32,000 nt of DNA from Candidatus Paracaedimonas acanthamoebae (GTDB lineage: Bacteria; Pseudomonadota; Alphaproteobacteria; Caedimonadales; Caedimonadaceae), in the NCBI GenBank assembly GCA_000743035.1, contig CP008940.1, forward strand, positions 30,001 to 62,000, given 5' to 3'. Positions 2,655 through 20,471 of the stretch are shown here, piece by piece (the first letter of the stretch is position 1; each line of letters opens with the position of its first letter). Position numbers and translations under genes: made by a program. Below the pieces are notes generated by a model. It was not told the origin of the DNA. It worked only from the letters and a program-made list of their open reading frames with translations, and ran no database searches.

Positions 2655-3227
2655 ATGGCTCAAAAATGGAAAAGTGTTAAACAAATAAGAGATGAATATT
2701 TTGATACAGGAACAATCTCTCCTGTCTCTATGGCACAGCTTAAAGAATACTTAAAAGGAGAAGATGAGAATGAGTTATGTAGAGCTATCAGTTTGGTAAC
2801 TGATGCGAGTTTAATGCACCTTGTCCCATTAATGGCTCAACATCTTGACCATGAAGATTCTTATGTCAGAGAAAGCTTAATAGGGAAGCTTCTCGGTATT
2901 CTTTGCTTACCAGAATACGCTGAGAAGGGATTAGATATGATTGAGCATGATGAAGAACCTGGGGTAAGAGATTTAGCTCTTAGCAATATAGGGGCTGTTA
3001 TAAATGAAATAAAAGATAAAGAGCTTAAGAAGAAAATAGCACAAAAACTTATAGACATATTATATTCTGAGACAGAAGATCATCTAACACGTTCAGCTTC
3101 ATACGTTTCTATATTAAAGGATTTAGAAGTCCCTGCAATAAAACGGCCAGATATTGATTTAATTATTGGCAAAGATTATCCAATTGATGAAGAAAAAATA
3201 GAAAAATTTAAAAAGCGTTATTTATAG
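2655..3227 (+). CDS. putative cognate immunity protein (HEAT-like helical repeats)
   Basis: The ATG lies 9 nt after the toxin stop and is preceded by AGGAG (nt 2644-2648). The product is 190 aa, acidic, and has no signal peptide. It shows HEAT-like repeats (HEDSYVRESLIGKLLG, EEPGVRDLALSNIGAV). The position directly 3' of a polymorphic-toxin tip is the canonical immunity position. Function is inferred from context only. Confidence 0.55.
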   Translation: MAQKWKSVKQIRDEYFDTGTISPVSMAQLKEYLKGEDENELCRAISLVTDASLMHLVPLMAQHLDHEDSYVRESLIGKLLGILCLPEYAEKGLDMIEHDEEPGVRDLALSNIGAVINEIKDKELKKKIAQKLIDILYSETEDHLTRSASYVSILKDLEVPAIKRPDIDLIIGKDYPIDEEKIEKFKKRYL

Positions 3228-3304: not shown

Positions 3305-3528
3305 AGATCCGGGAGCGCGAAGGCTTTAAAGAGATTCAGGTCCCGAACACCATCACGATGCCTGGCAAGGTTGTGTTGAAGGCGCAAGGGAAGATTCAAG
3401 GTCATCGCCCTGAGGTGCAAACTGAGCTGATCACTAAAGCGCCCCAGGTTGATCTCCCCCGTCCTCTTCCTCGGCAAGAGCTGTATGATCTCTGTGTGGG
3501 TCATCGCCCAGGCGGGAAACAGAGCATG
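3305..3528 (+). pseudogene. orphan duplicate of an internal segment of the upstream toxin gene (matches nt ~1209-1432)
   Basis: Hand alignment gives ~220 nt with about 15 substitutions and no indels. The translation IREREGFKEIQVPNTITMPGKVVLKAQGKIQGHRPEVQTELITKAPQVDLPRPLPRQELYDLCVGHRPGG matches toxin residues AIRERGGFKELQVPN...CVGHRPGG. An in-frame TGA lies immediately 5' of the homology. The homology ends at the IS3 remnant. Confidence 0.85.
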
Positions 3529-3713
3529 TCTATTTTAAGAACTATAAAACTCTAGAAGAAGCTAAAGATATCTTTGAGTATATCTTCACATTTTATAACG
3601 CTAAAAGGAGGCATTCGATACTCAACTACCAAAGTCCAAATTAGTGGGAATACAACTATTACAAAAATCAAACCATCTCAGTTCATACTGTCTAGTTTTT
3701 TGTAGAAAGATCA
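3527..3713 (+). mobile_element. IS3-family 3' remnant (last ~38 codons of the transposase plus right end)
   Basis: The translation VYFKNYKTLEEAKDIFEYIFTFYNAKRRHSILNYQSPN* (stop 3642-3644) matches the conserved IS3-family integrase C-terminus (FYN..R.HS.L.Y.SP). The downstream sequence ends in ...GTAGAAAGATCA, a TG...CA-type terminus. No upstream part of the transposase is present. Confidence 0.6.
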
Positions 3714-3825: not shown

Positions 3826-4344
3826 ATGAAAGTATCCAGATTTCTTTTAAATAGCAGCGTTGTCTTTACAGCTTGTTTTTTAGTATCTCATGCTAAAGCT
3901 GACGTAATATCAGACAATATAAGTAAACTAGCAAGTTCTGCCAAGGGCGCAACAAGCAAAAGCGCAGTTCAAAAAGCTCTATGTAAAAAAGCTAGCTTTT
4001 TTAGTGGAAAAATCAGCCTTCGTTCTTTTGAAGGAAAACTGTGTGTTGGTCCATTAGGAGCATTTGCTCTTCTTGCATGTAAAGGATACTCTGATGGAGA
4101 CGGGCCTTTCACTGATTCTTCTTGCTATAAAAAAGCTATTAGTAGTGTTGGTGGGGGTGATCCAGATGTATCATCATCAACTCTTTTAATCAATTCATTA
4201 AAAGGAACGGCTTCAGCAACGTTTAAGGTTGTTAAACCTCTTGTATGTACGTTTGGTCCTATTGCCCTTGACGCTACAGGTGCTGGTGCGCCTCTTGGGG
4301 TAGCTCTTGGAGCTGGCTGTGGTGCTTCTGATGCTATAAAATAA
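3826..4344 (+). CDS. hypothetical exported Cys-containing, Gly/Ala-rich protein
   Basis: ATG start with AGGGA about 12 nt upstream. N-terminal signal-peptide-like segment MKVSRFLLNSSVVFTACFLVSHAKA. Several Cys residues and a GAGAPLGVALGAGCGA tail. No recognisable family. Confidence 0.5.
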   Translation: MKVSRFLLNSSVVFTACFLVSHAKADVISDNISKLASSAKGATSKSAVQKALCKKASFFSGKISLRSFEGKLCVGPLGAFALLACKGYSDGDGPFTDSSCYKKAISSVGGGDPDVSSSTLLINSLKGTASATFKVVKPLVCTFGPIALDATGAGAPLGVALGAGCGASDAIK

Positions 4345-5046
4345 TTTAAAATCATGTAAGGTTTAACTGTTTGGGGGATAGCATCCTCCTTAATTTTTAT
4401 CTGACGTGCCAAGATCTACATTAGCCAGTATTCCTGTAGTCGCATAGATTATCATGATTCAATGCTATTGGCTGAAAAAGAGAGGAATATACATTAGGTC
4501 TTGTAGCATAAGCGCCGATGGTTCAGTAATTGTTGGCAGCATCGAGGATGAGAGTCAACAGAATCAGACAAGAGCCTGATAGACTCCTAAAGAGGGCTTA
4601 GAACCTGTTGAAGCAATCTTTCATGATGAGGAGATTTTACCCTCTTAGTGGAGAATAACCAAGGTGAAGGTAATAAATCCTAGTAGGACGATTCTTGTAG
4701 GAGAGAGGTACGCTGATAGGAAGACTTACGCATGGCGTGATGTTGTTATCCTCACAAAAAATCAAACCCCTAATTTCTGCCCTCAACCGCAAACTACGCC
4801 TATAAGGATGGAAGTACTGGAACTCAGACACGCGCATGGCGTGCTGTTATCCCAAGAACTAATCTCTTTTAAGGGCCCGAACTAAGGTTTTAACAATCAG
4901 GAGCTTTTCATATCCTCCTGTCGACTCAAAAATAATCAAAGGAGAATCATAGTTTTTAACTGAATTTAATAATGAACCCTGCCTCACTTTTGCAAGTGAT
5001 CAGCATGCAAGGATCCTGTCAAAATACAAGCATCAAAACCATAAAG

Positions 5047-6861
5047 TTATGAGTCCTTCCATGTCAAATAAATGCCGTTTTCTGCATTCTTTAAATAATG
5101 TGTCGGTGTGAAAGAATGCTGCTGGGCGAGCTTTAAGAAAGCTTTGCTTGCTAACGTATAAAAATAAATGTCAGATTGTGCCTGTTGGTGGGTTATGATA
5201 AGGCGCTTATCATTTGTTTGATCTGCTTTTAAGATGCTTGACGTTGCCTCCTCAAGATGGACCTCAAAGGGTTGTCTTGTTAAAAGTAAGGTCGTCGGCT
5301 GCCGTAAAATTATTTTGTATCCTCCATCTTTTCCAAATGGAATATAAGTTTTAATGTATGGCTTTAGCTCTTTCTTAGCCCATTGTTTAAAAGCTTGATG
5401 TAATACGCCTATGGCTCCATTTGAATTAACATGATTGCCCCGTCCAGTGATAATAGTGCATTCTTTCTCAAAATTATTATATCTTTTCACCATAAATTCC
5501 TGAACTTTATTTAATGCTTCTAAAGAGGATGTTTTATGAAGATCTAAGATTATTTGTTTGACATTATGAAAACAAAAATAAAGGCGTTTTTCTCGGTCCT
5601 CAATGATAGTAGCAGCTGGCCCTTGTAGTTCTTCATAAAAATACTTAAAAAGGGTGCCATTATTGTAACTAAAAAGCTCATTTACAGAAAAGGAAGCATC
5701 AGGCCTTAATTCAAAGACAAAGGTAACATAAGGATGCTTTGCTCTCTCCAAAGTTAAAGCAACTTCTTCTTTTAAAGCTGCATAACATTGCTCGAGGGTG
5801 TCCTTGTTAAGAAGGGAAGGTTTTACAAGAATTTTATCTTGAAACCCATGCTTCCCTTTCTCAAAGTCTTCTTCTTTAAAACCAGCTCGGACCATTAAAT
5901 TATAAAAAGTTCCTTGGTCTAAGCGCGTAGTATCAACTGCTCCCCCATAAAAATGGTAAGCAAATGAGTTTCGAGCTTGGTTTTCTTTTTGAGTATAATT
6001 ATTGATTGTTAGTCCTTCATGATAGATATCCCAAACCCCTTCTGCTGATTTGTTACCTTCTGTCCCATAGCGATCCTCACTTATACCGATGGGATATTTA
6101 TATGATCTCATATGTGCCAGTATCCACTGCAGATGGTCATAAATATCTTGGCCATCTAATTTGTATTTAAAATGCCGTATTTCATACGTTGGATCTTCTG
6201 CAGTTTCAGCAATTAAAAAATCAAGGTAAGGCCAAAATTGTTGCCAAGAGTATTTCTGAAAATAGATATCTGTAGCTTGCGAATCAATTTTCAGATGGTT
6301 GGCAATAAGAGTAGCAAGGTGTTGAGGACGATTTTGCCGTTGTTTGATGAGAGGGGCTCTACGATTGAGGTCAAGAGCATAACATAAATCTTCTAAGGTT
6401 GGAGCGCTTGTCATCTTAAGAAACCGATCCATTTCTTGAGAAGCTGCTAAGAAATTTCCTGACTCTTCAAAAATTTCAACCTGTGCTCTTATTTTCTTTA
6501 AAGTTTTTGGAGTATTTGTTTTTTGAGTTTTTACTTTTAAAATAGAGTGGGGAGATGAGGTTGATTGCTGACTTTGCTTATTTTCCCTCTTATCTACTTT
6601 AGCCTTTTGTAAATTGGTTTTCTTTTTAGATTTTTTTTGGAGAGAAGGGCCTATAAGGCTAGACGCACAAACCCTTGAAGGAGCTGCGCCAGCCTCTCCT
6701 CCCTCATTTAGTATTTTCTGTTTACCTTTCCAACTTGAATAAACAATGCTGGAGACCTTAGGATTATCTTCTTGCTCTTGACTTGCTATACTTGGATAGG
6801 AGTTTATTAAGAAGAAAGTACTTAATAAAAAAAGTAAAGGCTTGCGCGTAAAATATTTCAT
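5047..6861 (-). CDS. exported Smr-domain protein (604 aa) with Lys-rich tract and large unknown central domain
   Basis: ATG with GGGGAG RBS. Signal peptide MKYFTRKPLLFLLSTFFLINSYPSIA|SQEQED. Lys-rich tract LQKKSKKKTNLQKAKVDKRENKQ. Smr domain at aa 438-520 (nt 5302-5550): ILDLHK...CTIITGRGNHVNSNGAIGVLHQAFKQW...GKDGGYKIILR. Confidence 0.75.
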   Translation of the reverse strand: MKYFTRKPLLFLLSTFFLINSYPSIASQEQEDNPKVSSIVYSSWKGKQKILNEGGEAGAAPSRVCASSLIGPSLQKKSKKKTNLQKAKVDKRENKQSQQSTSSPHSILKVKTQKTNTPKTLKKIRAQVEIFEESGNFLAASQEMDRFLKMTSAPTLEDLCYALDLNRRAPLIKQRQNRPQHLATLIANHLKIDSQATDIYFQKYSWQQFWPYLDFLIAETAEDPTYEIRHFKYKLDGQDIYDHLQWILAHMRSYKYPIGISEDRYGTEGNKSAEGVWDIYHEGLTINNYTQKENQARNSFAYHFYGGAVDTTRLDQGTFYNLMVRAGFKEEDFEKGKHGFQDKILVKPSLLNKDTLEQCYAALKEEVALTLERAKHPYVTFVFELRPDASFSVNELFSYNNGTLFKYFYEELQGPAATIIEDREKRLYFCFHNVKQIILDLHKTSSLEALNKVQEFMVKRYNNFEKECTIITGRGNHVNSNGAIGVLHQAFKQWAKKELKPYIKTYIPFGKDGGYKIILRQPTTLLLTRQPFEVHLEEATSSILKADQTNDKRLIITHQQAQSDIYFYTLASKAFLKLAQQHSFTPTHYLKNAENGIYLTWKDS

Positions 6862-6886
6862 ATTGATGTCTCCCCTTTAATTTATG

Positions 6887-6913
6887 ATTAAAATATATTT
6901 GGCGCTGTTGCAA
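6887..6913 (-). promoter_or_regulatory. candidate hybrid promoter for the 604-aa Smr gene: -35 TTGCAA inside the MITE inverted repeat, -10 TTTAAT
   Basis: The minus strand reads TTGCAA (6908-6913), a 15-nt spacer, then TTTAAT (6887-6892), then 25 nt to the ATG. The -10 and leader are homologous to the RNase III gene promoter. The 15-nt spacing is suboptimal. Confidence 0.3.
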
Positions 6914-7039
6914 AAACTTTCTAAAGTTGCAGCTAAGATTACAATTAAGCTAAGGATTTTAAATTTCGGACATAGTTGGGACGTAGATATTAAAAATATC
7001 CTACGAGTTAATTATCACCATCAATTTTTGCAACACGAC
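6901..7039. mobile_element. 139-bp MITE-like element with IS6/IS26-type terminal inverted repeats
   Basis: The left end is GGCGCTGTTGCAAAAA. The reverse complement of the right end is GGTCGTGTTGCAAAAA. Both resemble the IRs of the intact IS6-family element in this window (GGCCCTGTTGCAAAAA at 16462 and 17290). There is no ORF inside. The flanks (ATATATTT / TTATTTTA) are not a clean 8-bp duplication. Confidence 0.6.
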
Positions 7040-7045
7040 CTTATT

Positions 7046-7750
7046 TTACTTGAGCTCTAAGCTTATACAACCCTTTGCCGTGATTTTTGTATAAGCGCTA
7101 ACAGTGCTATTGGATGGCTGCTTTGATTGTTTAGATTTCTTTTTTCTTTTTATAATTTTTGGCTCTACCTTTTTTTCTAAAGCAGGAACTACACTTAGTT
7201 TAAAATTCTTAAAGGGAGCATTTGCTCCATATAAGCTTACCGTATGCTTCCTTCTCTTCTTCTCTTTACTCTTTTTAGTATGGTGACCATTTTTTAAGGT
7301 AACCTTCCACCCACCTTCCTTATTAATAGAACGTATTTTCTCAATATAAGGTTCAAATTTTTTACTACATAAATAATGATAGCATCTATTCCAAAGAAGC
7401 CCCATTATTCCTTGAGGATTATTAAGTCCCCTTCCTGTAATAATTTCCACGGTAGAAGCATGGTTGCGATGTGCTTTCCTAATAAATTGATCAACCCATT
7501 TAAATTTAACCTCCGTAGGTACTTTCCCATGAAGGTCGAGAAAAGTATAAGGTTGCCTCTTTTGAGCTGAAATAGTCTCTTCTTTCTTGAGGAAAACAAT
7601 GAGAGCTTGCTGGCTACAAATAGGAATTACTTCTTCAACTAAGGCGCTAAAGAAAGGCTTTTGTAAAAATTCTAAGCACTGATGGGCAACTAGACTTTGA
7701 TCCTCTTGTGAAGTGAAATCTTCGAGATCTACTAGGCTCGCATTTTGCAA
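7046..7750 (-). CDS. Smr-domain protein (234 aa) with strongly basic C-terminal tail; start codon uncertain
   Basis: Smr domain at aa 70-153 (nt 7292-7543): LDLHGK...VEIITGRGLNNPQGIMGLLW...NKEGGWKVTLK. The tail carries KKSKEKKRRKH and KIIKRKKKSKQSKQ. The only start in frame is TTG at 7750 with no visible RBS, and there is no internal Met before aa 116. The gene may be 5'-eroded. Confidence 0.6.
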   Translation of the reverse strand: MQNASLVDLEDFTSQEDQSLVAHQCLEFLQKPFFSALVEEVIPICSQQALIVFLKKEETISAQKRQPYTFLDLHGKVPTEVKFKWVDQFIRKAHRNHASTVEIITGRGLNNPQGIMGLLWNRCYHYLCSKKFEPYIEKIRSINKEGGWKVTLKNGHHTKKSKEKKRRKHTVSLYGANAPFKNFKLSVVPALEKKVEPKIIKRKKKSKQSKQPSNSTVSAYTKITAKGCISLELK

Positions 7751-7870
7751 ATTAAAAAAACGAAAATCTAAAACAGTGTATTCTCTTTTATCTTTACTTA
7801 ATTTATTGAGCTCTTCATATAAAAAAACATGAATATCTTTCAGGGTTGAAGCCTTGTCTATACAAATAGA

Positions 7871-8347
7871 TCATTTCTTTCCAACAATAAACTTTTCCTT
7901 AATAGTATAAATTCTTTCTTCATGAGTAATTCTCTTAAGTAATTCTTCCTTATCTTCAAATAAAGTGCCTTTTGCAGAGTGAGCATGATGGTAATGTATT
8001 CCAAGAAGATATGCCCCCTTAAAGCTTGCGCCATTAATATTAGCATCTGTTAGATCTGACTTTTTCAACTTTGCTTTATGGAAGTTTACTTTAGAAAGAT
8101 TAGCACGGTGAAATAATGCTCCTGCCAAATTTGAGTGAGAAAAATTAGCCCCTCTCAAATTAGCACCCGTAAAATCAGCCCCTTTTAAATTCATATCTCT
8201 AAGATCTGCACCTTGTAAGTTAAACTCTACAGCACAAACCCGCTGACCAGCATTTACTTGTACATGCAAGCTTTTCAAATCTTCCTCATCAAAGGCATGA
8301 GCAAGGTGTACAAAAAAGAATAAAAGTAGGGAAAGGCTATGTTTCAT
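7871..8347 (-). CDS. exported pentapeptide-repeat protein
   Basis: Signal peptide MKHSLSLLLFFFVHLAHA. Contiguous A(D/N)LxX pentapeptides: GADLRDMNLKGADFTGANLRGANFSHSNLAGALFHRANLSKVNFHKAKLKKSDLTDANINGASFKGAYL. Confidence 0.8.
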   Translation of the reverse strand: MKHSLSLLLFFFVHLAHAFDEEDLKSLHVQVNAGQRVCAVEFNLQGADLRDMNLKGADFTGANLRGANFSHSNLAGALFHRANLSKVNFHKAKLKKSDLTDANINGASFKGAYLLGIHYHHAHSAKGTLFEDKEELLKRITHEERIYTIKEKFIVGKK

Positions 8348-8524
8348 GTTTCAATACTGTATTAGGAAAGCAGGATAAGCAAGGGATCCTATTAAAATTC
8401 AAATAAGCGCCCAAGCTTTGAAGCCAAAAAAACCTAGCATAACTTTCCAAAAATCAATCCTTAAAAATAATCCTTGATCCTTAACACAGTATCACAACCC
8501 TTTTGAAAGATAACAGGGCCCAGC

Positions 8525-8953
8525 TTAGGCTTTTATGCAATGCAAATAGTCATCTTTGCCATAATCAATAATTTTTTGATCCCTTGTAAGAAGCGGTATG
8601 CCAAGAACTCTTGCTGTTGCAACGATAATCCTATCAGCGGGATCACCGTGAAAATTCCCAGGAAGAGAAGCACTCTCAACAGTAACTTCTGGGGTGAGAG
8701 GATATAAAGTAATGCCTGGTGCCTCAAGACTTCTTTTGATCCAAGCCAAGCAAGGCTGATTCAAGAGTATTCTTCCTTTAGCGTGGAGCATGCTTACTTC
8801 CCAAAGAGAAATAGCGCTTATAGCAATAGCACCATCAATAAGACATGCCTCTATAACATTTCTTGCTTCTGAAGAAAGTTCTTTTTCTCCACTCATGAGC
8901 CACAGAAAAGCATGAGTATCTAAAATTAGTCGTATATCAGGATAATGCTGCAT
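8525..8953 (-). CDS. vapC: PIN-domain toxin VapC
   Basis: ILDTHAFLW...SLWEV...DPADRIIVATA...LTRD carries the conserved PIN acidic residues. ATG at 8953 is preferred over the track TTG at 8968. The gene overlaps the upstream antitoxin gene. Confidence 0.8.
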   Translation of the reverse strand: MQHYPDIRLILDTHAFLWLMSGEKELSSEARNVIEACLIDGAIAISAISLWEVSMLHAKGRILLNQPCLAWIKRSLEAPGITLYPLTPEVTVESASLPGNFHGDPADRIIVATARVLGIPLLTRDQKIIDYGKDDYLHCIKA

Positions 8954-9179
8954 CCCACTTTTCCTCAATTGGGCTAATGATGTCTCCCTTTACTTTGAGA
9001 GACTGTTTCATGAAACCAAAAAGAGAAGAGGGCGTCTCTGTATAAGGCACCAGTTTAGCAACAGGAACACCGCGCTTAGTGATAATGATAGTTTCATGCT
9101 TTTGTTCAGTGAGGTCCATGAGCTTTAAACATTTGGCTTTAAATTCACCTGCGCCAATTTGGATCATAGTTATCTCCAT
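8937..9179 (-). CDS. Phd/YefM-family antitoxin
   Basis: The sequence (MEIT)MIQIGAGEFKAKCLKLMDLTEQKHETIIITKRGVPVAKLVPY is typical of the Phd/YefM N-terminus. The gene overlaps vapC. An alternative ATG at 9167 lies behind GGAGA. Confidence 0.75.
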   Translation of the reverse strand: MEITMIQIGAGEFKAKCLKLMDLTEQKHETIIITKRGVPVAKLVPYTETPSSLFGFMKQSLKVKGDIISPIEEKWDAALS

Positions 9180-9182
9180 GAT

Positions 9183-9202
9183 TATATGTCTATAGTCATA
9201 TA
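9183..9202. promoter_or_regulatory. imperfect palindrome upstream of the antitoxin gene, candidate TA operator
   Basis: TATATGTCTA|TAGTCATATA matches 8/10 per half-site. It starts 4 nt upstream of the antitoxin start. The AT-rich context lowers its significance. Confidence 0.3.
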
Positions 9203-9436
9203 GTATACAATTATATATTTAAGAAGCAATAAATTTTTTAAATTCTTAAGGCCTTAAAAAGTATAAATAATAATATGCTAAAATTAGCTAGTTTCATAAT
9301 ATGAACCAGAAAGAATTTATACAAACTTTAAGATATTGTGAAACGCTATGGTAGTATCTGCTTCCTATATCGAAGGCAGGCTTGTTAGTAAGTTACTTAA
9401 AGTGGTTTTAATGATATGGCCTGAGGATCTTTAAGC

Positions 9437-9465
9437 TTGAAAAGGCCTAAGAGACTATATTTAAT
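9437..9465 (+). promoter_or_regulatory. sigma70-like promoter of the tandem RNase III gene
   Basis: TTGAAA (9437-9442), a 17-nt spacer, then TTTAAT (9460-9465), then 25 nt containing GGGGAG, then ATG 9491. The TTG used as ORF start in the track is the -35 hexamer. Confidence 0.45.
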
Positions 9466-9490
9466 TGTAAATTATAGGGGAGACATCAGT

Positions 9491-11440
9491 ATGATATACT
9501 TTACGCATAAATATTTATCTATTTTATTCTATGTTTTTTGCTTAATCCAAGCCTTACCAATCGCAGCAAGCCAAGAACAAGAAGATCAACTTAAAATACT
9601 TAAGGCACCTTTTGTAGGTCAGAGAGGAAAACAAAAAGCTCAAAGAGAGGAAGAAGGCGAGCCCAAAACGCTGGATTTCCACCATGGTTCTGCTAGTTCG
9701 AGTTCACTTGAAAGTATAGATATTTCTAAAGACGAGACGCAACTTCTCCGAGAACTGTCTCAAGAAATAGATTATACGTTCAAAAAGCCTGAGCTTTTAC
9801 ATTTAGCTTTAAGGCACAGTACCACTGATATTGGACATTCCCATTCATCGCGAGGATATGAACGTCTAGAATTCTTAGGTGATGCTGTCTTAGAGCATGT
9901 AATACGAGAATTTTTATGGAAGGATTTTCCGAAACTTAATGCCAATCAATTATCAAAAATTTGTTCTACACTTACCTGCAATGAAACTCTTGCTCACTTA
10001 TCAAAACACTTAAGACTTGCAGCAATATCTAAAAGATTAAAGCTATCCACCTTTACAAGAGAAGAAACCTTACAATCTCATCGACAAGCTGATTTTGTCG
10101 AATCCCTCATTGGCGCCATTTATAGCGATGGGGGAATAGAAGCAAGCCATAAATTTTTTAAGAGATATTATACAAGTGAAAGAGCTCCAACCTTTATTTC
10201 TAATATTATGAATTCTATCTCTCAAGAAGCTATTGAAGAAAGCCCGCTTTCTGCTTTATTCAGTAACAATCTTTATAAGAGAGCCTTTTATGAATTTTCT
10301 CAGTTTGAAGGCTTTCAATTTGTGGGGGAGGGCATCCTTAGATTTATTCTCCGTGATATGCTTTATCATCGCTTTCCTGAAAGCACAGAAGGGGAGCTTG
10401 TTCAAAAGTATAATAGTCTGATTTCTGCAGAAAGCTTATCTGCAATAGTAACGCAATATAACTTAAATCCTCACCTTAGTAAGCATTCTTTAAAATCATT
10501 TTTAGGCTTATTGTATCTTGATAAAGGGTTAGAATCAGTCCAAAACTTTATTCTTTGGCACTGGACAGGAGAAGAAGCTCCTAAAGCAGTTGTTGGTGCC
10601 CTTGAAAAAAGGATGGACTCAGTGCCTTCCCTTGAATCATCTTATTTTGTAAGCCTTCCTGCTCGTACCCAAATACAATTTACACCAAAAAATATTCTTC
10701 AAGAAGTTTTACAGATGCTGCGTGATGAGCCTTACTATTCTCATGAGAAAACAGGCCCAGATCATAATCCTACCTTTACAGTAACTGTTCAGTCTAAGTT
10801 AGAACACTTTAAGTCACTGCAAGGGCAGGCTGGTAGATTGCTTGACGCTCAACAAGAAGCAGCTCAAAAAGCTCTTGATATTTTATCTGTTAAAGTGTTG
10901 CTTACAACTATTGGAAACAAGGAAGACGCCGTTAAAAATGTGGGCTATTGCCTTAAGCTTTTAGAAGCTAAATTACGTTCCTTAGGCATTAGAGAATTTA
11001 GCTACCATAAAATTGCTAAAAGCCCTTATTTAAAGAACAATATTTATCGCTTTGAGCTTCAAGGGAAAAACGTTTATCCAACTTTTGGGGAAGACGAAAC
11101 TATAGAAGCGGCCTTATTACAAGCGCTGGGCAAAGGGATATTCAAACTGTGTAGGGCAGAATATAAGAAAGCTGCTCACAGTGTAAAAGGGACTCATCAA
11201 GATATCCCTTTAGAAGATAACCGCCTTATATTTTTAAAAAGTATTTTGGAAGAAACACTGAAGCCTCTAGGGTATGAAAACTTTACTTATATCCCTCATT
11301 CAAAAAGTAAAGAAAAAATACAGCCATATTTAGTATATGAGATTCAAGTCGGGAGTTTAAGACCGGCTAAAGGACAAGGGCTTACACCCCTTCAGGCTCA
11401 GATTAACGCATTACAAGGATTGCTGGATTCTATGGTCTAA
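9491..11440 (+). CDS. exported protein with two RNase III domains (first intact, second catalytically degenerate) and one canonical plus two probable dsRBD modules
   Basis: Signal peptide MIYFTHKYLSILFYVFCLIQALPIAA|SQEQED. Domain 1 carries ERLEFLGDAVLEHV (nt 9860-9883) and ADFVESLIGAIY. Domain 2 carries EGFQFVGEGILRFILRDMLYHRFPESTEGELVQKYNSLISAESL (signature at nt 10307-10330), with the distal acidic pair lost (HSLKSFLGLLYLD). dsRBD at nt ~10685-10888 (GPDHNPTFTVTVQ...AQQEAAQKALDIL). Two further similar modules lie at ~10931-11152 and ~11219-11434. Confidence 0.75.
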   Translation: MIYFTHKYLSILFYVFCLIQALPIAASQEQEDQLKILKAPFVGQRGKQKAQREEEGEPKTLDFHHGSASSSSLESIDISKDETQLLRELSQEIDYTFKKPELLHLALRHSTTDIGHSHSSRGYERLEFLGDAVLEHVIREFLWKDFPKLNANQLSKICSTLTCNETLAHLSKHLRLAAISKRLKLSTFTREETLQSHRQADFVESLIGAIYSDGGIEASHKFFKRYYTSERAPTFISNIMNSISQEAIEESPLSALFSNNLYKRAFYEFSQFEGFQFVGEGILRFILRDMLYHRFPESTEGELVQKYNSLISAESLSAIVTQYNLNPHLSKHSLKSFLGLLYLDKGLESVQNFILWHWTGEEAPKAVVGALEKRMDSVPSLESSYFVSLPARTQIQFTPKNILQEVLQMLRDEPYYSHEKTGPDHNPTFTVTVQSKLEHFKSLQGQAGRLLDAQQEAAQKALDILSVKVLLTTIGNKEDAVKNVGYCLKLLEAKLRSLGIREFSYHKIAKSPYLKNNIYRFELQGKNVYPTFGEDETIEAALLQALGKGIFKLCRAEYKKAAHSVKGTHQDIPLEDNRLIFLKSILEETLKPLGYENFTYIPHSKSKEKIQPYLVYEIQVGSLRPAKGQGLTPLQAQINALQGLLDSMV

Positions 11441-11664
11441 TTTCATGACTCTACCTTTTTTGCCAATCCTGCTAGTTTGCTCCCTTATTTCAAACCTGCA
11501 ACATGTATGTTGCTGAGGAGCCTATAAGAGAGTAGCTAAGCCTTGTAGGCTGGAAGAGGTGACTTTGAAGTTGCAACAAGCTACAAAATCTGAGGTTCTA
11601 ATAAGCCCTCTTCTAATTGATCTAGAGTTGAACAGCAGTTGTGTTAATAGTCAATAAAAAACAA

Positions 11665-14147: not shown

Positions 14148-14218
14148 CCATTGATCTTGCTACAAAAATCAAACCATCTCGGTTCACAATGTCTAAATTT
14201 TTGTAGCAAGATCAATGG
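14148..14218. repeat. 71-bp palindromic element: perfect 22-bp inverted repeats around a 27-bp core, related to the IS3-remnant right end at 3650-3713
   Basis: CCATTGATCTTGCTACAAAAAT (14148-14169) pairs with ATTTTTGTAGCAAGATCAATGG (14197-14218). The core and arms are ~88% identical over ~55 nt to nt ~3657-3713. The arms start TGATCTT... and end ...AAGATCA, like IS3-family termini. Confidence 0.7.
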
Positions 14219-14442: not shown

Positions 14443-14707
14443 CTGAATAAGATTATTGAAGCTGGCCATGGTAAACTTAAGCGACTGATTAAACCAACAT
14501 TAGGATTTAATTCTTTAAGAACAGCTTATGCGACGATCAAAGGATTCAAGGTAATGAAGATGTTTAAAAAGGGATAGATTGGTCTTTGGAAGGATGGCCA
14601 AGAGCTTAAAGGAGAAATCCCTCTAGTTAACCAACAATTTAGTCTCTGTACAGCCTGAAACCTCAAAAAACCTAAACCTGGCCAATTATACTTCTTGCAC
14701 CAGGGCC
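14443..14707 (+). pseudogene. IS6-family 3' remnant (C-terminal third of the transposase plus right IR), with an in-frame stop
   Basis: Roughly 80% nt identity by eye to nt 17023-17290 of the intact copy. The translation LNKIIEAGHGKLKRLIKPTLGFNSLRTAYATIKGFKVMKMFKKG*IGLWKDGQ carries a premature stop. It ends in TTGCACCAGGGCC (IR-like). Confidence 0.8.
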
Positions 14708-15558: not shown

Positions 15559-15948
15559 TCATCTAATAAGTCTGATATCAATATTATCTAGCTGCAATTC
15601 TTTCCAGATCTTGTCGGCAGTATAGATAGGGAGCTGTAATTTTTGTCCAAGAGCAATGCAAGCTCTGTCTCCTAATGAGAGGCCATAAGATTTAGTTTTT
15701 TTTCTAAGATCTGCCGTCAGCAAAGCAAATTCTTCATCATAAGGCACAATTGCTGAAATAAAAGGTAAAACGGTGTCTTGACATTCTTGTAGGGTCATTT
15801 CTGAATTGAGTAATACAGTAGCGACTTCAGAAAGGTTTATGCTCGACATTATGATTTTACCAAGGAGAGATTCAACGATATCTGCGCCTGGTTCATTTTT
15901 AAGGAGGGCAAGAAGAGCTGAAGAGTCTAGAATAACATTAGTGCTCAT
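15559..15948 (-). CDS. vapC: PIN-domain toxin VapC (second, unrelated copy)
   Basis: MSTNVILDSSALLALL...NLSEV...LSLGDRACIALG...IYTADK carries the PIN acidic residues. ATG at 15948 is preferred over the track start 15984. It overlaps the antitoxin stop by 11 nt. Confidence 0.8.
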   Translation of the reverse strand: MSTNVILDSSALLALLKNEPGADIVESLLGKIIMSSINLSEVATVLLNSEMTLQECQDTVLPFISAIVPYDEEFALLTADLRKKTKSYGLSLGDRACIALGQKLQLPIYTADKIWKELQLDNIDIRLIR

Positions 15949-16198
15949 GCTTAGCTTCCTCACGACGCATTTCAAACAATACATCCACTAAACTTTCTTT
16001 AGTAGAATGGTAACGATTTACAGTTTGACGCGCGCTTTCAAGCTTATGCCTGAGAGAAGTGATCACAAGATGTTCATCTTGAATCTCAAGCATAACTTCT
16101 TCACCATCTTTGAGATTTAACTTTTTTCTAAAGAAGGCAGGGATAACAATTTTCCCACCTTTAGATATTTTTGCTCTTGGTATCATTTTACCCTCCAT
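15938..16198 (-). CDS. vapB: AbrB/SpoVT/MazE-fold antitoxin
   Basis: (MEGK)MIPRAKISKGGKIVIPAFFRKKLNLKDGEEVMLEIQDEHLVITS is a swapped-hairpin AbrB-type motif. The ATG at 16186 sits behind GGAGGG and is the likelier start. Confidence 0.75.
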   Translation of the reverse strand: MEGKMIPRAKISKGGKIVIPAFFRKKLNLKDGEEVMLEIQDEHLVITSLRHKLESARQTVNRYHSTKESLVDVLFEMRREEAKHEH

Positions 16199-16461: not shown

Positions 16462-17290
16462 GGCCCTGTTGCAAAAAGTTTTGTCTTCGTTCAGAGTTTC
16501 TAAAAATTAGAGGACTATTGGATGAATGATTTTAAGTGGCGTCATTTTCAAGGGGATATTATTCTTGGATGCGTAAGGTGGTATTGTAAATACGGGATCA
16601 GCTATCGGGACCTTGAAGAAATGATGGAAGAAAGAGGCATTACGGTTGATCATACAACTCTTAATAGATGGGTAATCACTTATGCTCCAGAGATTGAGAA
16701 AAGGCTCAGGTGGTATTGGAAACCAGGGCTTGGCTATAGCTGGAGAGTTGATGAAACTTATGTAAAAGTTAAGGGTAAATGGGCTTACCTTTATCGAGCT
16801 CTTGATAAGCGAGGGCGTACTATAGACTTTTATCTTTCATCGACAAGAAATATCAGTGCTGCCAAACGGTTTCTTTCAAAGGCTTTAAGAAAGTTTAAGG
16901 AATGGGAAAAACCAAGTAAAATTAATACAGATAAGGCACCTACTTATGCTGTAGCGATCAAAGAATTAAAGAAGGAAGGACTTTGTCCTCAAGACCTTGA
17001 GCATCGACAGATTAAGTATCTCAATAACCTTATTGAAGCTGATCATGGTAAACTCAAACGACTGATTAAACCAACTCTAGGGTTTAAATCTTTGAAAACA
17101 GCTTATGCAACGATTAAAGGGTTTGAAGTGATGAGGATGTTTAAAAAGGGACAGATGGATCTTTGGAAATATCGCCAAGGACTCAAGGGAGAAATCCGTC
17201 TCGTTAACCGACAATTCAGTGTCTATACTGTTTAATTGAAAACTGCAAAAAGACCTAAATCTGCTCAAATAATATTTTTGCAACAGGGCC
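16462..17290 (+). mobile_element. intact IS6-family (IS26-like) insertion sequence, 829 bp
   Basis: Terminal IRs are GGCCCTGTTGCAAAAA (16462-) and its complement TTTTTGCAACAGGGCC (-17290). Compare the IS26 IR GGCACTGTTGCAAA (from memory). Single 237-aa transposase ORF. The flanking 8-mers CGAAAAAG and TTCCTTTT differ, so there is no target duplication. Confidence 0.85.
16522..17235 (+). CDS. IS6-family DDE transposase
   Basis: MNDFKWRHFQGDIILGCVRWYCKYGISYRDLEEMMEERGITVDHTTLNRWV...WRVDETYVKVKGKWAYLYRALD...INTDKAPTY...NNLIEADHGKLKR is the classic IS6/IS26 Tnp pattern. The 237-aa length fits the family. Confidence 0.9.
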   Translation: MNDFKWRHFQGDIILGCVRWYCKYGISYRDLEEMMEERGITVDHTTLNRWVITYAPEIEKRLRWYWKPGLGYSWRVDETYVKVKGKWAYLYRALDKRGRTIDFYLSSTRNISAAKRFLSKALRKFKEWEKPSKINTDKAPTYAVAIKELKKEGLCPQDLEHRQIKYLNNLIEADHGKLKRLIKPTLGFKSLKTAYATIKGFEVMRMFKKGQMDLWKYRQGLKGEIRLVNRQFSVYTV

Positions 17291-20072: not shown

Positions 20073-20138
20073 ACATGCGTTTAAGGTATGAAATTTGTGA
20101 TACCGTGCAGAGATAGTTTATCAGGTTGTGTTGCAACT

Positions 20139-20340
20139 TAGGGTACCAGGAAGATTTGAGCGAAAATACACGGTAAGAAAAATAATTTAAAGAAATCAAT
20201 AACATAAAAATTGAATAAAACAGTAAGATTTAGTTAAAGTTTGCACCTTTTTCTTTTTTACTTTCTCAATAAATTCAATATATTAGGATTATAATTCATC
20301 GCTTATCGGATATTTACGGCCAAATCTTCCTGGTACCCTA
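20139..20340. mobile_element. 202-bp MITE-like element with 20-bp perfect terminal inverted repeats (TA at both extremities)
   Basis: TAGGGTACCAGGAAGATTTG (20139-20158) and CAAATCTTCCTGGTACCCTA (20321-20340) are exact reverse complements around a 162-bp AT-rich non-coding core. The right end interrupts the IS110 remnant reading frame. Confidence 0.6.
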
Positions 20341-20471
20341 ATAACCATAGGCTTCTTCCCTTGATTTTTGAGTCGGTCTGCAAATTCTTTAATAAGAGGG
20401 TTTGACCGAATCGCTGTCAAAGCGGGAAAGAATAAAAGCTTACGTAAACGGCTTGAACCAACCTTTGACAA
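20341..20471 (-). pseudogene. IS110-family transposase C-terminal scrap
   Basis: GSSRLRKLLFFPALTAIRSNPLIKEFADRLKNQGKKPMVI matches the conserved IS110 C-terminal region (compare GGRVQIRKALYMSIISAKEFNSYIKSFFTRLTTQAKKPFKI in the 11665-12615 copy). It is truncated at both ends. The track ORF tail (RVPGRFGRKYPISDEL) is MITE sequence. Confidence 0.65.

Follow-up and report, generated by a model that had tools for sequence, protein, structure and literature searches.

The stretch analysed here, called the window below, comprises 32,000 nucleotides (nt) of contig CP008940.1 of Candidatus Paracaedimonas acanthamoebae, and positions are window coordinates throughout. The replicon is a 65,130-bp plasmid of this bacterium. 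Ca. Paracaedimonas acanthamoebae belongs to the Caedimonadaceae/Holosporales and is a symbiont in the cytoplasm of Acanthamoeba (PMC11909080). We investigated two nuclease genes of the plasmid, an Smr gene on the minus strand (ATG at 6861), whose 604-residue product is AIL13922.1 (IM40_11360), and a tandem RNase III gene on the plus strand (ATG at 9491). Their 5' ends, from the untranslated region to the early mature part of the protein, form a shared unit in front of two unrelated enzymatic parts, hereafter the cargos. The features of both genes are as follows.

5047-6690, minus strand: Smr cargo, with a K-rich linker, an alpha/beta region (residues ~117-430) and the Smr domain (residues 439-506, Pfam)
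6691-6783, minus strand: early-mature segment of the Smr protein, codons 27-57, SQEQEDNPKV...KGKQKILNEGGE, predicted to be disordered
6784-6861, minus strand: predicted signal peptide of the Smr protein, codons 1-26, MKYFTRKPLLFLLSTFFLINSYPSIA followed by SQ
6862-6898, minus strand: shared 5' untranslated region of the Smr gene, with TTTAAT at 6887-6892 and a Shine-Dalgarno-like GGGGAGA at 6869-6875, 7 nt before the ATG
9455-9490, plus strand: shared 5' untranslated region of the RNase III gene, with TTTAAT at 9460-9465 and GGGGAGA at 9477-9483
9491-9568, plus strand: predicted signal peptide of the RNase III protein, codons 1-26, MIYFTHKYLSILFYVFCLIQALPIAA followed by SQ
9569-9655, plus strand: early-mature segment of the RNase III protein, codons 27-55, SQEQEDQLKI...RGKQKAQREEE
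9656-11440, plus strand: RNase III cargo, with a catalytic and then a degenerate RNase III domain, a double-stranded RNA-binding domain and a conserved C-terminal part

At the nucleotide level the 5' ends of the two genes are homologous, as the initial annotation had proposed. Local alignment of the reverse complement of 6650-6960 with 9392-9702 gave a score of 70 over a stretch of ~200 nt, far above 500 mononucleotide shuffles (10.9 ± 1.4, maximum 17) and 500 random window segments (11.4 ± 1.7, maximum 18). An independent repeat search returned the same region as the arms of an inverted repeat of 135 nt with 73% identity (6758-6892 / 9460-9594). The hexamer TTTAAT is common to both copies, 21 of the 25 nt from TTTAAT to the ATG are identical (4 differences), and the identity amounts to 29/33 nt over the 5' untranslated region. 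Two long exact motifs, AGGGGAGACATCARTATG and GCAAGYCAAGARCAAGAAGAT, each occur at these two sites only in the 32 kb, with up to 3 mismatches allowed. The proteins agree in 23 of their first 49 residues, and tblastn aligned the leaders with 45% identity over 53 residues (24 identical), with a reciprocal E of 1.3e-9. No relationship remains past residue ~57 (best BLASTP E = 0.36), and Pfam assigns an Smr domain to one protein and two Ribonuclease_3 domains plus dsrm to the other, in agreement with the earlier description of the mature parts. The genes had also been called divergent; they do lie on opposite strands, yet four minus-strand genes separate them.

The base composition of the window (38% G+C) and the compositional likeness of signal peptides in general would favour a chance resemblance of two AT-rich 5' ends that both encode generic leaders. 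The distance between the alignment score and the highest control, the restriction of both long motifs to these two sites and the tblastn E of about 1e-9 leave practically nothing of this explanation, which the alignment controls rule out. The shared 5' ends are real and statistically solid.

Each copy of the shared unit consists of ~33-37 nt before the ATG, including GGGGAGA, a 26-codon signal peptide and ~30 codons of the mature N-terminus, the latter with the pattern SQEQED..K...GKQK...E.E.G, acidic and then basic. The Smr leader has the n-region MKYFTRK, with a charge of +3, a 12-residue hydrophobic core of mean Kyte-Doolittle hydropathy 2.40 and SIA|SQ at residues 26/27. The RNase III leader has the n-region MIYFTHK, with a charge of +1, a 12-residue core of mean hydropathy 2.48 and IAA|SQ at 26/27, and both leaders have a Pro at position -4 of the cleavage site. 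On these features both are predicted to be classical Sec signal peptides cleaved by signal peptidase I (SPase I). No lipobox was found, the Smr leader being without Cys and the sole Cys of the RNase III leader (C17, VFC|L) being without G, A or S at -1. The twin-arginine translocation (Tat) motif S/T-R-R-x-F-L-K is likewise absent from the two leaders, which read TRKPLLF and THKYLSI and have no RR pair. The N-terminal 123 and 84 residues of the two proteins matched no Pfam family at E <= 10, PF12113 included. In the AlphaFold model of the Smr protein, the predicted local distance difference test (pLDDT) score is below 50 for residues 1-114 and about 90 for residues 118-604.

The Smr domain of the minus-strand gene (PF01713) scored 39.2 bits, against a gathering cut-off of 25.7, and a Foldseek search with the model matched the Smr domains of MutS2 and YdaL with a probability of 1.0. 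The nearest relatives of the protein are found in Candidatus Amoebophilus (Bacteroidota) and in unnamed metagenomic bacteria, and more distant ones in alphaproteobacterial metagenome-assembled genomes (MAGs). In neighbour-joining (NJ) bootstraps the window protein clustered with Amoebophilus-type sequences in 100 of 100 replicates, and the named Amoebophilus group was monophyletic without the window protein in 7 of 100. The identity to the protein of Amoebophilus sp. 36-38 is 57.7%, compared with 55.4% between the two named Amoebophilus proteins themselves. These Amoebophilus-type relatives have a Cys after the hydrophobic core, that is, lipoprotein-like leaders, and the upstream region of the closest relative (L004), the sole one read, has no Shine-Dalgarno sequence. 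Since the Smr cargo lies inside an Amoebophilus-type clade with leaders of the Cys type, the gene was probably re-headed after a transfer across phyla.

Two observations on the Smr protein stand apart from its leader. Residues ~117-430 (window 5047-6510) are confidently modelled as an alpha/beta fold with residues invariant throughout the family (YNLMVRAGF, GKHGFQDK); this region gave no Pfam match, no PDB sequence match and no convincing fold match, and a hit to the Schlafen-13 N-domain (E = 2.6e-3, TM-score ~0.1-0.2) was taken as noise. A soil-metagenome protein fragment, P0002 (SRR5690606_643984), shares a 90%-identity cluster with the central part of the window Smr protein, so close relatives of the latter exist in environmental samples.

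In the RNase III protein, the first Ribonuclease_3 domain scored 111.8 bits in Pfam; it carries YERLEFLGDAVLE, in agreement with the ERLEFLGD signature of RNase III, and DFVESLIGA, with the catalytic acids E127/D131/D201/E204 intact. The second domain is degenerate (FQFVGEG), and its second acid pair is absent family-wide. The family is small, with only seven relatives at 35-40% identity in 5.8e9 protein clusters. Those that were located lie in an alphaproteobacterial MAG and on an unassigned contig with the character of a bacterial chromosome, and their neighbours include patatin, F-box, S8-protease and kinase genes. Six of the seven, the exception being P0004, have a Sec-like leader of their own, none of them homologous to the shared leader, and the early-mature segment is missing in the closest relatives (P0003-P0006). 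Homologs of the RNase III and Smr genes were not seen side by side in the relatives, where their chromosomal contexts are unrelated. As a separate observation, the protein (9491-11440) has a Drosha-like layout and its best PDB sequence match is human Drosha (2e-21, both domains), above bacterial RNase III; the higher total for Drosha may merely reflect two matching domains.

A single ortholog of the RNase III gene was found, on the metagenome contig L010 (Ga0079224_100188480, 1-2978), with 95.4% nucleotide and 91.7% amino acid identity. Positions 304-2338 of this contig are collinear with 9464-11503 of the window (blastn), and the homology is confined to 304-2338, which suggests that the RNase III gene moves as a unit. 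The ortholog keeps the region from -27 to +111 with one change and its flanks diverge. Compared with the window gene it has no mismatch in the first 111 nt; the 111 nt that follow contain 15 and vary more than any other internal part of the gene. The context in L010 differs from that in the window: the RNase III gene is preceded, at a distance of 97 nt, by a Sel1-repeat gene of the same strand and followed by a serine-recombinase fragment.

The age of the two leader copies and the constraint on them were then read from codon positions. Over the first 49 codons, nucleotide identity is 67/61/61% at codon positions 1/2/3, so that the third position shows no excess change. As many as 9 of the 23 conserved residues (~40%) are encoded by different codons, which indicates that the duplication is old and that no recent gene conversion has taken place. 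RecA-dependent exchange usually needs roughly 20-30 nt of identity; the longest exact run between the copies is 13 nt, from which it appears that they no longer recombine. Within the islands MxYFTxK, ASQEQED and GKQK, 6 of 15 codons show a synonymous difference, and non-synonymous ones are absent. This pattern points to protein-level selection on the n-region, on the cleavage region (P-x-x-A|SQEQED) and on GKQK in the early mature part. The 5' untranslated region differs at 4/33 nt (12%), as against ~40% of synonymous differences (binomial P = 7e-4), and the comparison argues for selection at the nucleotide level on the initiation region.

The conservation between -33 and +16 could also be that of a common cis site, either the -10 element of a promoter or a site on the mRNA leader for a protein or a small RNA, through which the two nucleases would be switched jointly. 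The excess of conservation over the synonymous level is in line with such a site, the spacers being conserved too and not the Shine-Dalgarno sequence alone, and a ProQ/FinO-family RNA-binding protein is encoded on the same plasmid (21943-22452). However, the shared region folds into no conserved RNA structure (the consensus energy of -2.35 kcal/mol is negligible) and matches no Rfam family. A promoter fares no better. TTTAAT has a T where the second position of a -10 element is a nearly invariant A, the sigma-70 scan called no promoter at either site, and the similarity stops just upstream of TTTAAT, the -35 regions being unrelated. Moreover, the ortholog lacks most of the hexamer, as follows.

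9449-9464, plus strand: 16-nt stretch TAAGAGACTATATTTA, missing in L010; its loss takes 5/6 of the TTTAAT bases (three-way alignment)

The shared promoter of the initial annotation is not supported, in view of the differing -35 regions, the missing sigma-70 call and this ortholog, and probably does not exist as described. Read-through transcription is a live alternative, because the L010 gene starts 97 nt past a Sel1 gene of the same strand and the Smr gene of the window also sits downstream of same-strand genes. An optimised initiation region would account for much of the conservation. We regard joint switching through a common cis site as rather unlikely.

The initial annotation had further described the unit as a portable export module. 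A leader profile run against 5.8e9 protein clusters gave 2 word-sharing candidates, neither of which scored, and an exhaustive profile search of 1.84e9 representatives gave 2 matches, both false; P0068 and P0069 were rejected as carriers, being translated tandem-repeat junk. No leader carrier was found among 72,556 plasmids or among viral contigs, and a near-match search of PLSDB with the 3.1-kb region returned nothing, the source plasmid being absent from that collection. Genome contigs gave 72 pattern matches, 0 of them confirmed, in scans that likewise did not return the loci of the window itself. In metagenome contigs the sole carrier was L010, that is, the ortholog of the RNase III gene itself. 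The loci of the cargo homologs contained no relative of the leader; a 21-residue hydrophobic match in L008 (E = 0.011) lay well downstream of the expected N-terminus and was dismissed. Within the 32-kb window, neither tblastn nor an exact-motif search revealed a third copy, so the count is two, below the three or more paralogs set for a multi-gene leader family. What stands of the portable module is a homologous 5' unit with a predicted export signal, brought by recombination onto two unrelated cargos; a wider set of genes bearing this leader was not recovered from the protein, plasmid, genome, viral and metagenome collections.

These searches also bear on the suggestion, made initially, that the conserved post-cleavage stretch has a function beyond the Sec leader. 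SQEQED...GKQK would then be a dedicated signal for a second step, either secretion across the outer membrane or targeting within the host, and the unit a portable cassette that marks host-directed nucleases. The purely synonymous divergence of the conserved islands, the invariance of the first 111 nt in L010 ahead of the most variable part of the gene and the status of the segment as an insertion relative to P0003-P0006 agree with this proposal, as does the resemblance of both cargos to host-directed RNA nucleases, in symbiont-restricted families. Nevertheless, only two genes carry the stretch, to which all the searches add just the ortholog, and the run of 7 identical residues is only marginally unusual for two sequences of this identity (estimated P ~0.03-0.1). 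Acidic residues after the predicted cleavage site are general here: unrelated exported proteins of both families and of the window begin with AQA|MERNEDE, MEPEKS, AHA|FDEED, VSA|SHPTDEEHEE and AKA|DVISD. Acidic early-mature residues are expected of efficient Sec substrates, and the acidic stretch therefore has a mundane reading. A dedicated delivery tag is, in our view, unlikely. Its combination with joint regulation, in which the initiation region and SQEQED...GKQK together would form a tag that co-regulates a Drosha-like RNase III and an Smr endonuclease of Amoebophilus-like derivation and routes both from the periplasm to the host, appears more doubtful still.

We favour, with a probability of about two in three, an interpretation in which the unit is the 5' end of a gene that was recombined between the two genes or received from a third donor, the Smr gene having been acquired across phyla and then re-headed, and both nucleases being exported by Sec. 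For the presence of the shared unit on unrelated cargos, recombination is the only origin that seems reasonable. In the proposed course of events, an Amoebophilus-type Smr gene would have entered the Paracaedimonas plasmid, and its 5' end would then have been replaced by a proteobacterial initiation region and a Sec leader like those of the RNase III gene, at a distance of 2.6 kb. Either one gene passed its front end to the other, by copying or recombination, or a third gene supplied the unit to both; we infer a direction from the RNase III type of leader towards the Smr gene. The strong initiation region would drive the synthesis of both nucleases, which would be exported via Sec to the periplasm and cleaved after residue 26. 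Sec would deliver them only to the periplasm, since the organism is Gram-negative, unlike phytoplasma. An onward release of the nucleases into the amoeba is plausible, because the symbiont is free in the cytoplasm of its host and both protein families are confined to symbiont-like genomes.

Several points weigh against this interpretation. With only two paralogous copies of the unit, the donor may have been either gene, or a third gene from which both received it. The genome scans missed the loci of the window itself, so more copies may exist elsewhere in the source genome. The Smr tree is a neighbour-joining tree only, in which the taxonomy of several clade members was deduced from their leader type, and the assignment of the signal peptides is a rule-based check of charge, core and cleavage site. 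Finally, GKQK lies ~20 residues past the cleavage site, where Sec export alone does not explain its conservation, and some scope is thereby left for a secondary signal as initially suggested.

The surroundings of the two genes are those of a mosaic, mobilisable plasmid rich in insertion sequences (IS). Besides ProQ/FinO, the window encodes MobA/MobL, TraD, two IS110-family transposases, an IS6 transposase and a YhgA-like transposase, together with a CdiA-like toxin, Sel1-repeat proteins and two PIN toxin-antitoxin modules. A suspected IS110 remnant 3' of the Smr gene (4859-4987) was supported neither by tblastn nor by Pfam. The genes between the two leader copies are the following.

7046-9179, minus strand: interval between the leader copies (2.6 kb), with four minus-strand genes
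7046-7750, minus strand: second Smr open reading frame (ORF), without a signal peptide
7871-8347, minus strand: pentapeptide-repeat protein, predicted to be secreted, with a Sec-like leader
8525-8968, minus strand: PIN toxin
8937-9179, minus strand: Phd/YefM antitoxin, which pairs with the PIN toxin (8525-9179)

The second Smr ORF starts with TTG, and its C-terminal tail is rich in lysine; it immediately precedes the 604-residue Smr gene on the same strand, and their kinship is confined to the Smr domain (35% over 84 residues). Two more small ORFs have Sec-like leaders, neither of which is akin to the shared leader: the pentapeptide-repeat ORF at 7871-8347 (AHA|FDEED) and a 172-residue ORF at 3826-4344 (AKA|DVISD), which has no Pfam match. 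The second PIN gene (15559-15984) overlaps a small ORF (15938-16198), with which it may form the second toxin-antitoxin module, and the two PIN modules are consistent with a plasmid maintained by addiction systems. Three short repeats may be IS ends or miniature elements: a direct repeat of 54 nt with 89% identity (3660-3713 / 14161-14214), an inverted repeat of 40 nt with 85% identity and arms 124 nt apart (20138-20177 / 20302-20341), and a direct repeat of 209 nt with 82% identity at the end of the IS6 transposase gene (14443-14651 / 17020-17228).

The CdiA-like toxin fragment (DUF637 + Ntox28) occupies 24-2645 and is followed by a HEAT-like ORF (2655-3227), which may encode its immunity protein. 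A piece of 215 nt from inside the toxin gene (1212-1426) recurs at 3307-3521 with 93% identity, resembling the orphan-module remnants of polymorphic toxin loci. This genuine CdiA-like locus lies 2.4 kb from the 3' end of the Smr gene, and with the conserved N-termini and unrelated nuclease C-termini of the two proteins it recalls the architecture of polymorphic toxins, in which a conserved N-terminal trafficking region precedes interchangeable nuclease toxins with immunity genes. But the part shared by the two proteins is just a signal peptide and ~30 disordered residues with no Pfam family, and no candidate immunity ORF follows either gene, an IS110 transposase gene being next to the RNase III gene. 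In addition, the homologs of both cargos are stand-alone chromosomal genes with leaders of their own. A polymorphic-toxin architecture is thereby largely refuted and has very little probability left.

Taken as a 5' gene end recombined onto a gene from another phylum, the shared unit offers a clean case, and one that can be dated, of a foreign gene being fitted for use in a new host. Such a gene may bring expression and export signals that do not work there, and in this case a candidate effector gene apparently received a new 5' end with a local ribosome-binding region and signal peptide. For the Holosporales, a poorly studied group, the analysis also points to two RNA nucleases, both predicted to be secreted, as candidates for host-directed effectors, and SQEQED...GKQK provides a short, testable peptide for secretion work; if it formed a true tag together with the initiation region, this would be an N-terminal delivery signal of a two-step kind not described before.

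Three known systems can be compared with this pair, and judged by its sequence the shared unit belongs to none of them, whether terminal reassortment, the Borrelia upstream homology box or the phytoplasma SVM family. The SVM signal (PF12113) heads SAP11, SAP54 and other phytoplasma effectors (PMC8026896). As in our case, a conserved signal-peptide motif is found on otherwise unrelated Sec-dependent proteins of an obligate intracellular bacterium, in association with mobile units. In contrast, SVM is a large family, and there is no sequence kinship between it and the present leaders (no Pfam match). The upstream homology box (UHB) of the Borrelia cp32 Erp/OspE-F genes is a demonstrated promoter/operator of many lipoprotein paralogs (PMC7002432). 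There, too, plasmid genes for exported proteins have similar upstream sequences and diverged mature parts. The unit described here differs in its ~37 nt of shared initiation region, in a putative -10 element that is lost in the ortholog, in its restriction to two genes and in leaders that are not of the lipoprotein type.

The closest parallel in kind is the terminal reassortment reported for chimeric type III effectors (Stavrinides et al. 2006, as cited in PMC3071791). The Smr/RNase III pair shows the defining combination of a homologous 5' end and non-homologous C-terminal parts: unrelated C-terminal cargos follow a common 5' unit made of upstream sequence and an N-terminal secretion signal. 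The likeness extends to the setting of the recombination, in regions where transposons and plasmids abound, and to the re-equipment of a newly acquired gene for expression and export. Unlike the type III chimeras, the pair has a predicted Sec/SPase I leader and not a type III signal with a hrp-box promoter, comprises two genes and is known from sequence alone. It is neither a new mechanism nor a widespread module, but a two-copy case of a known type of event.

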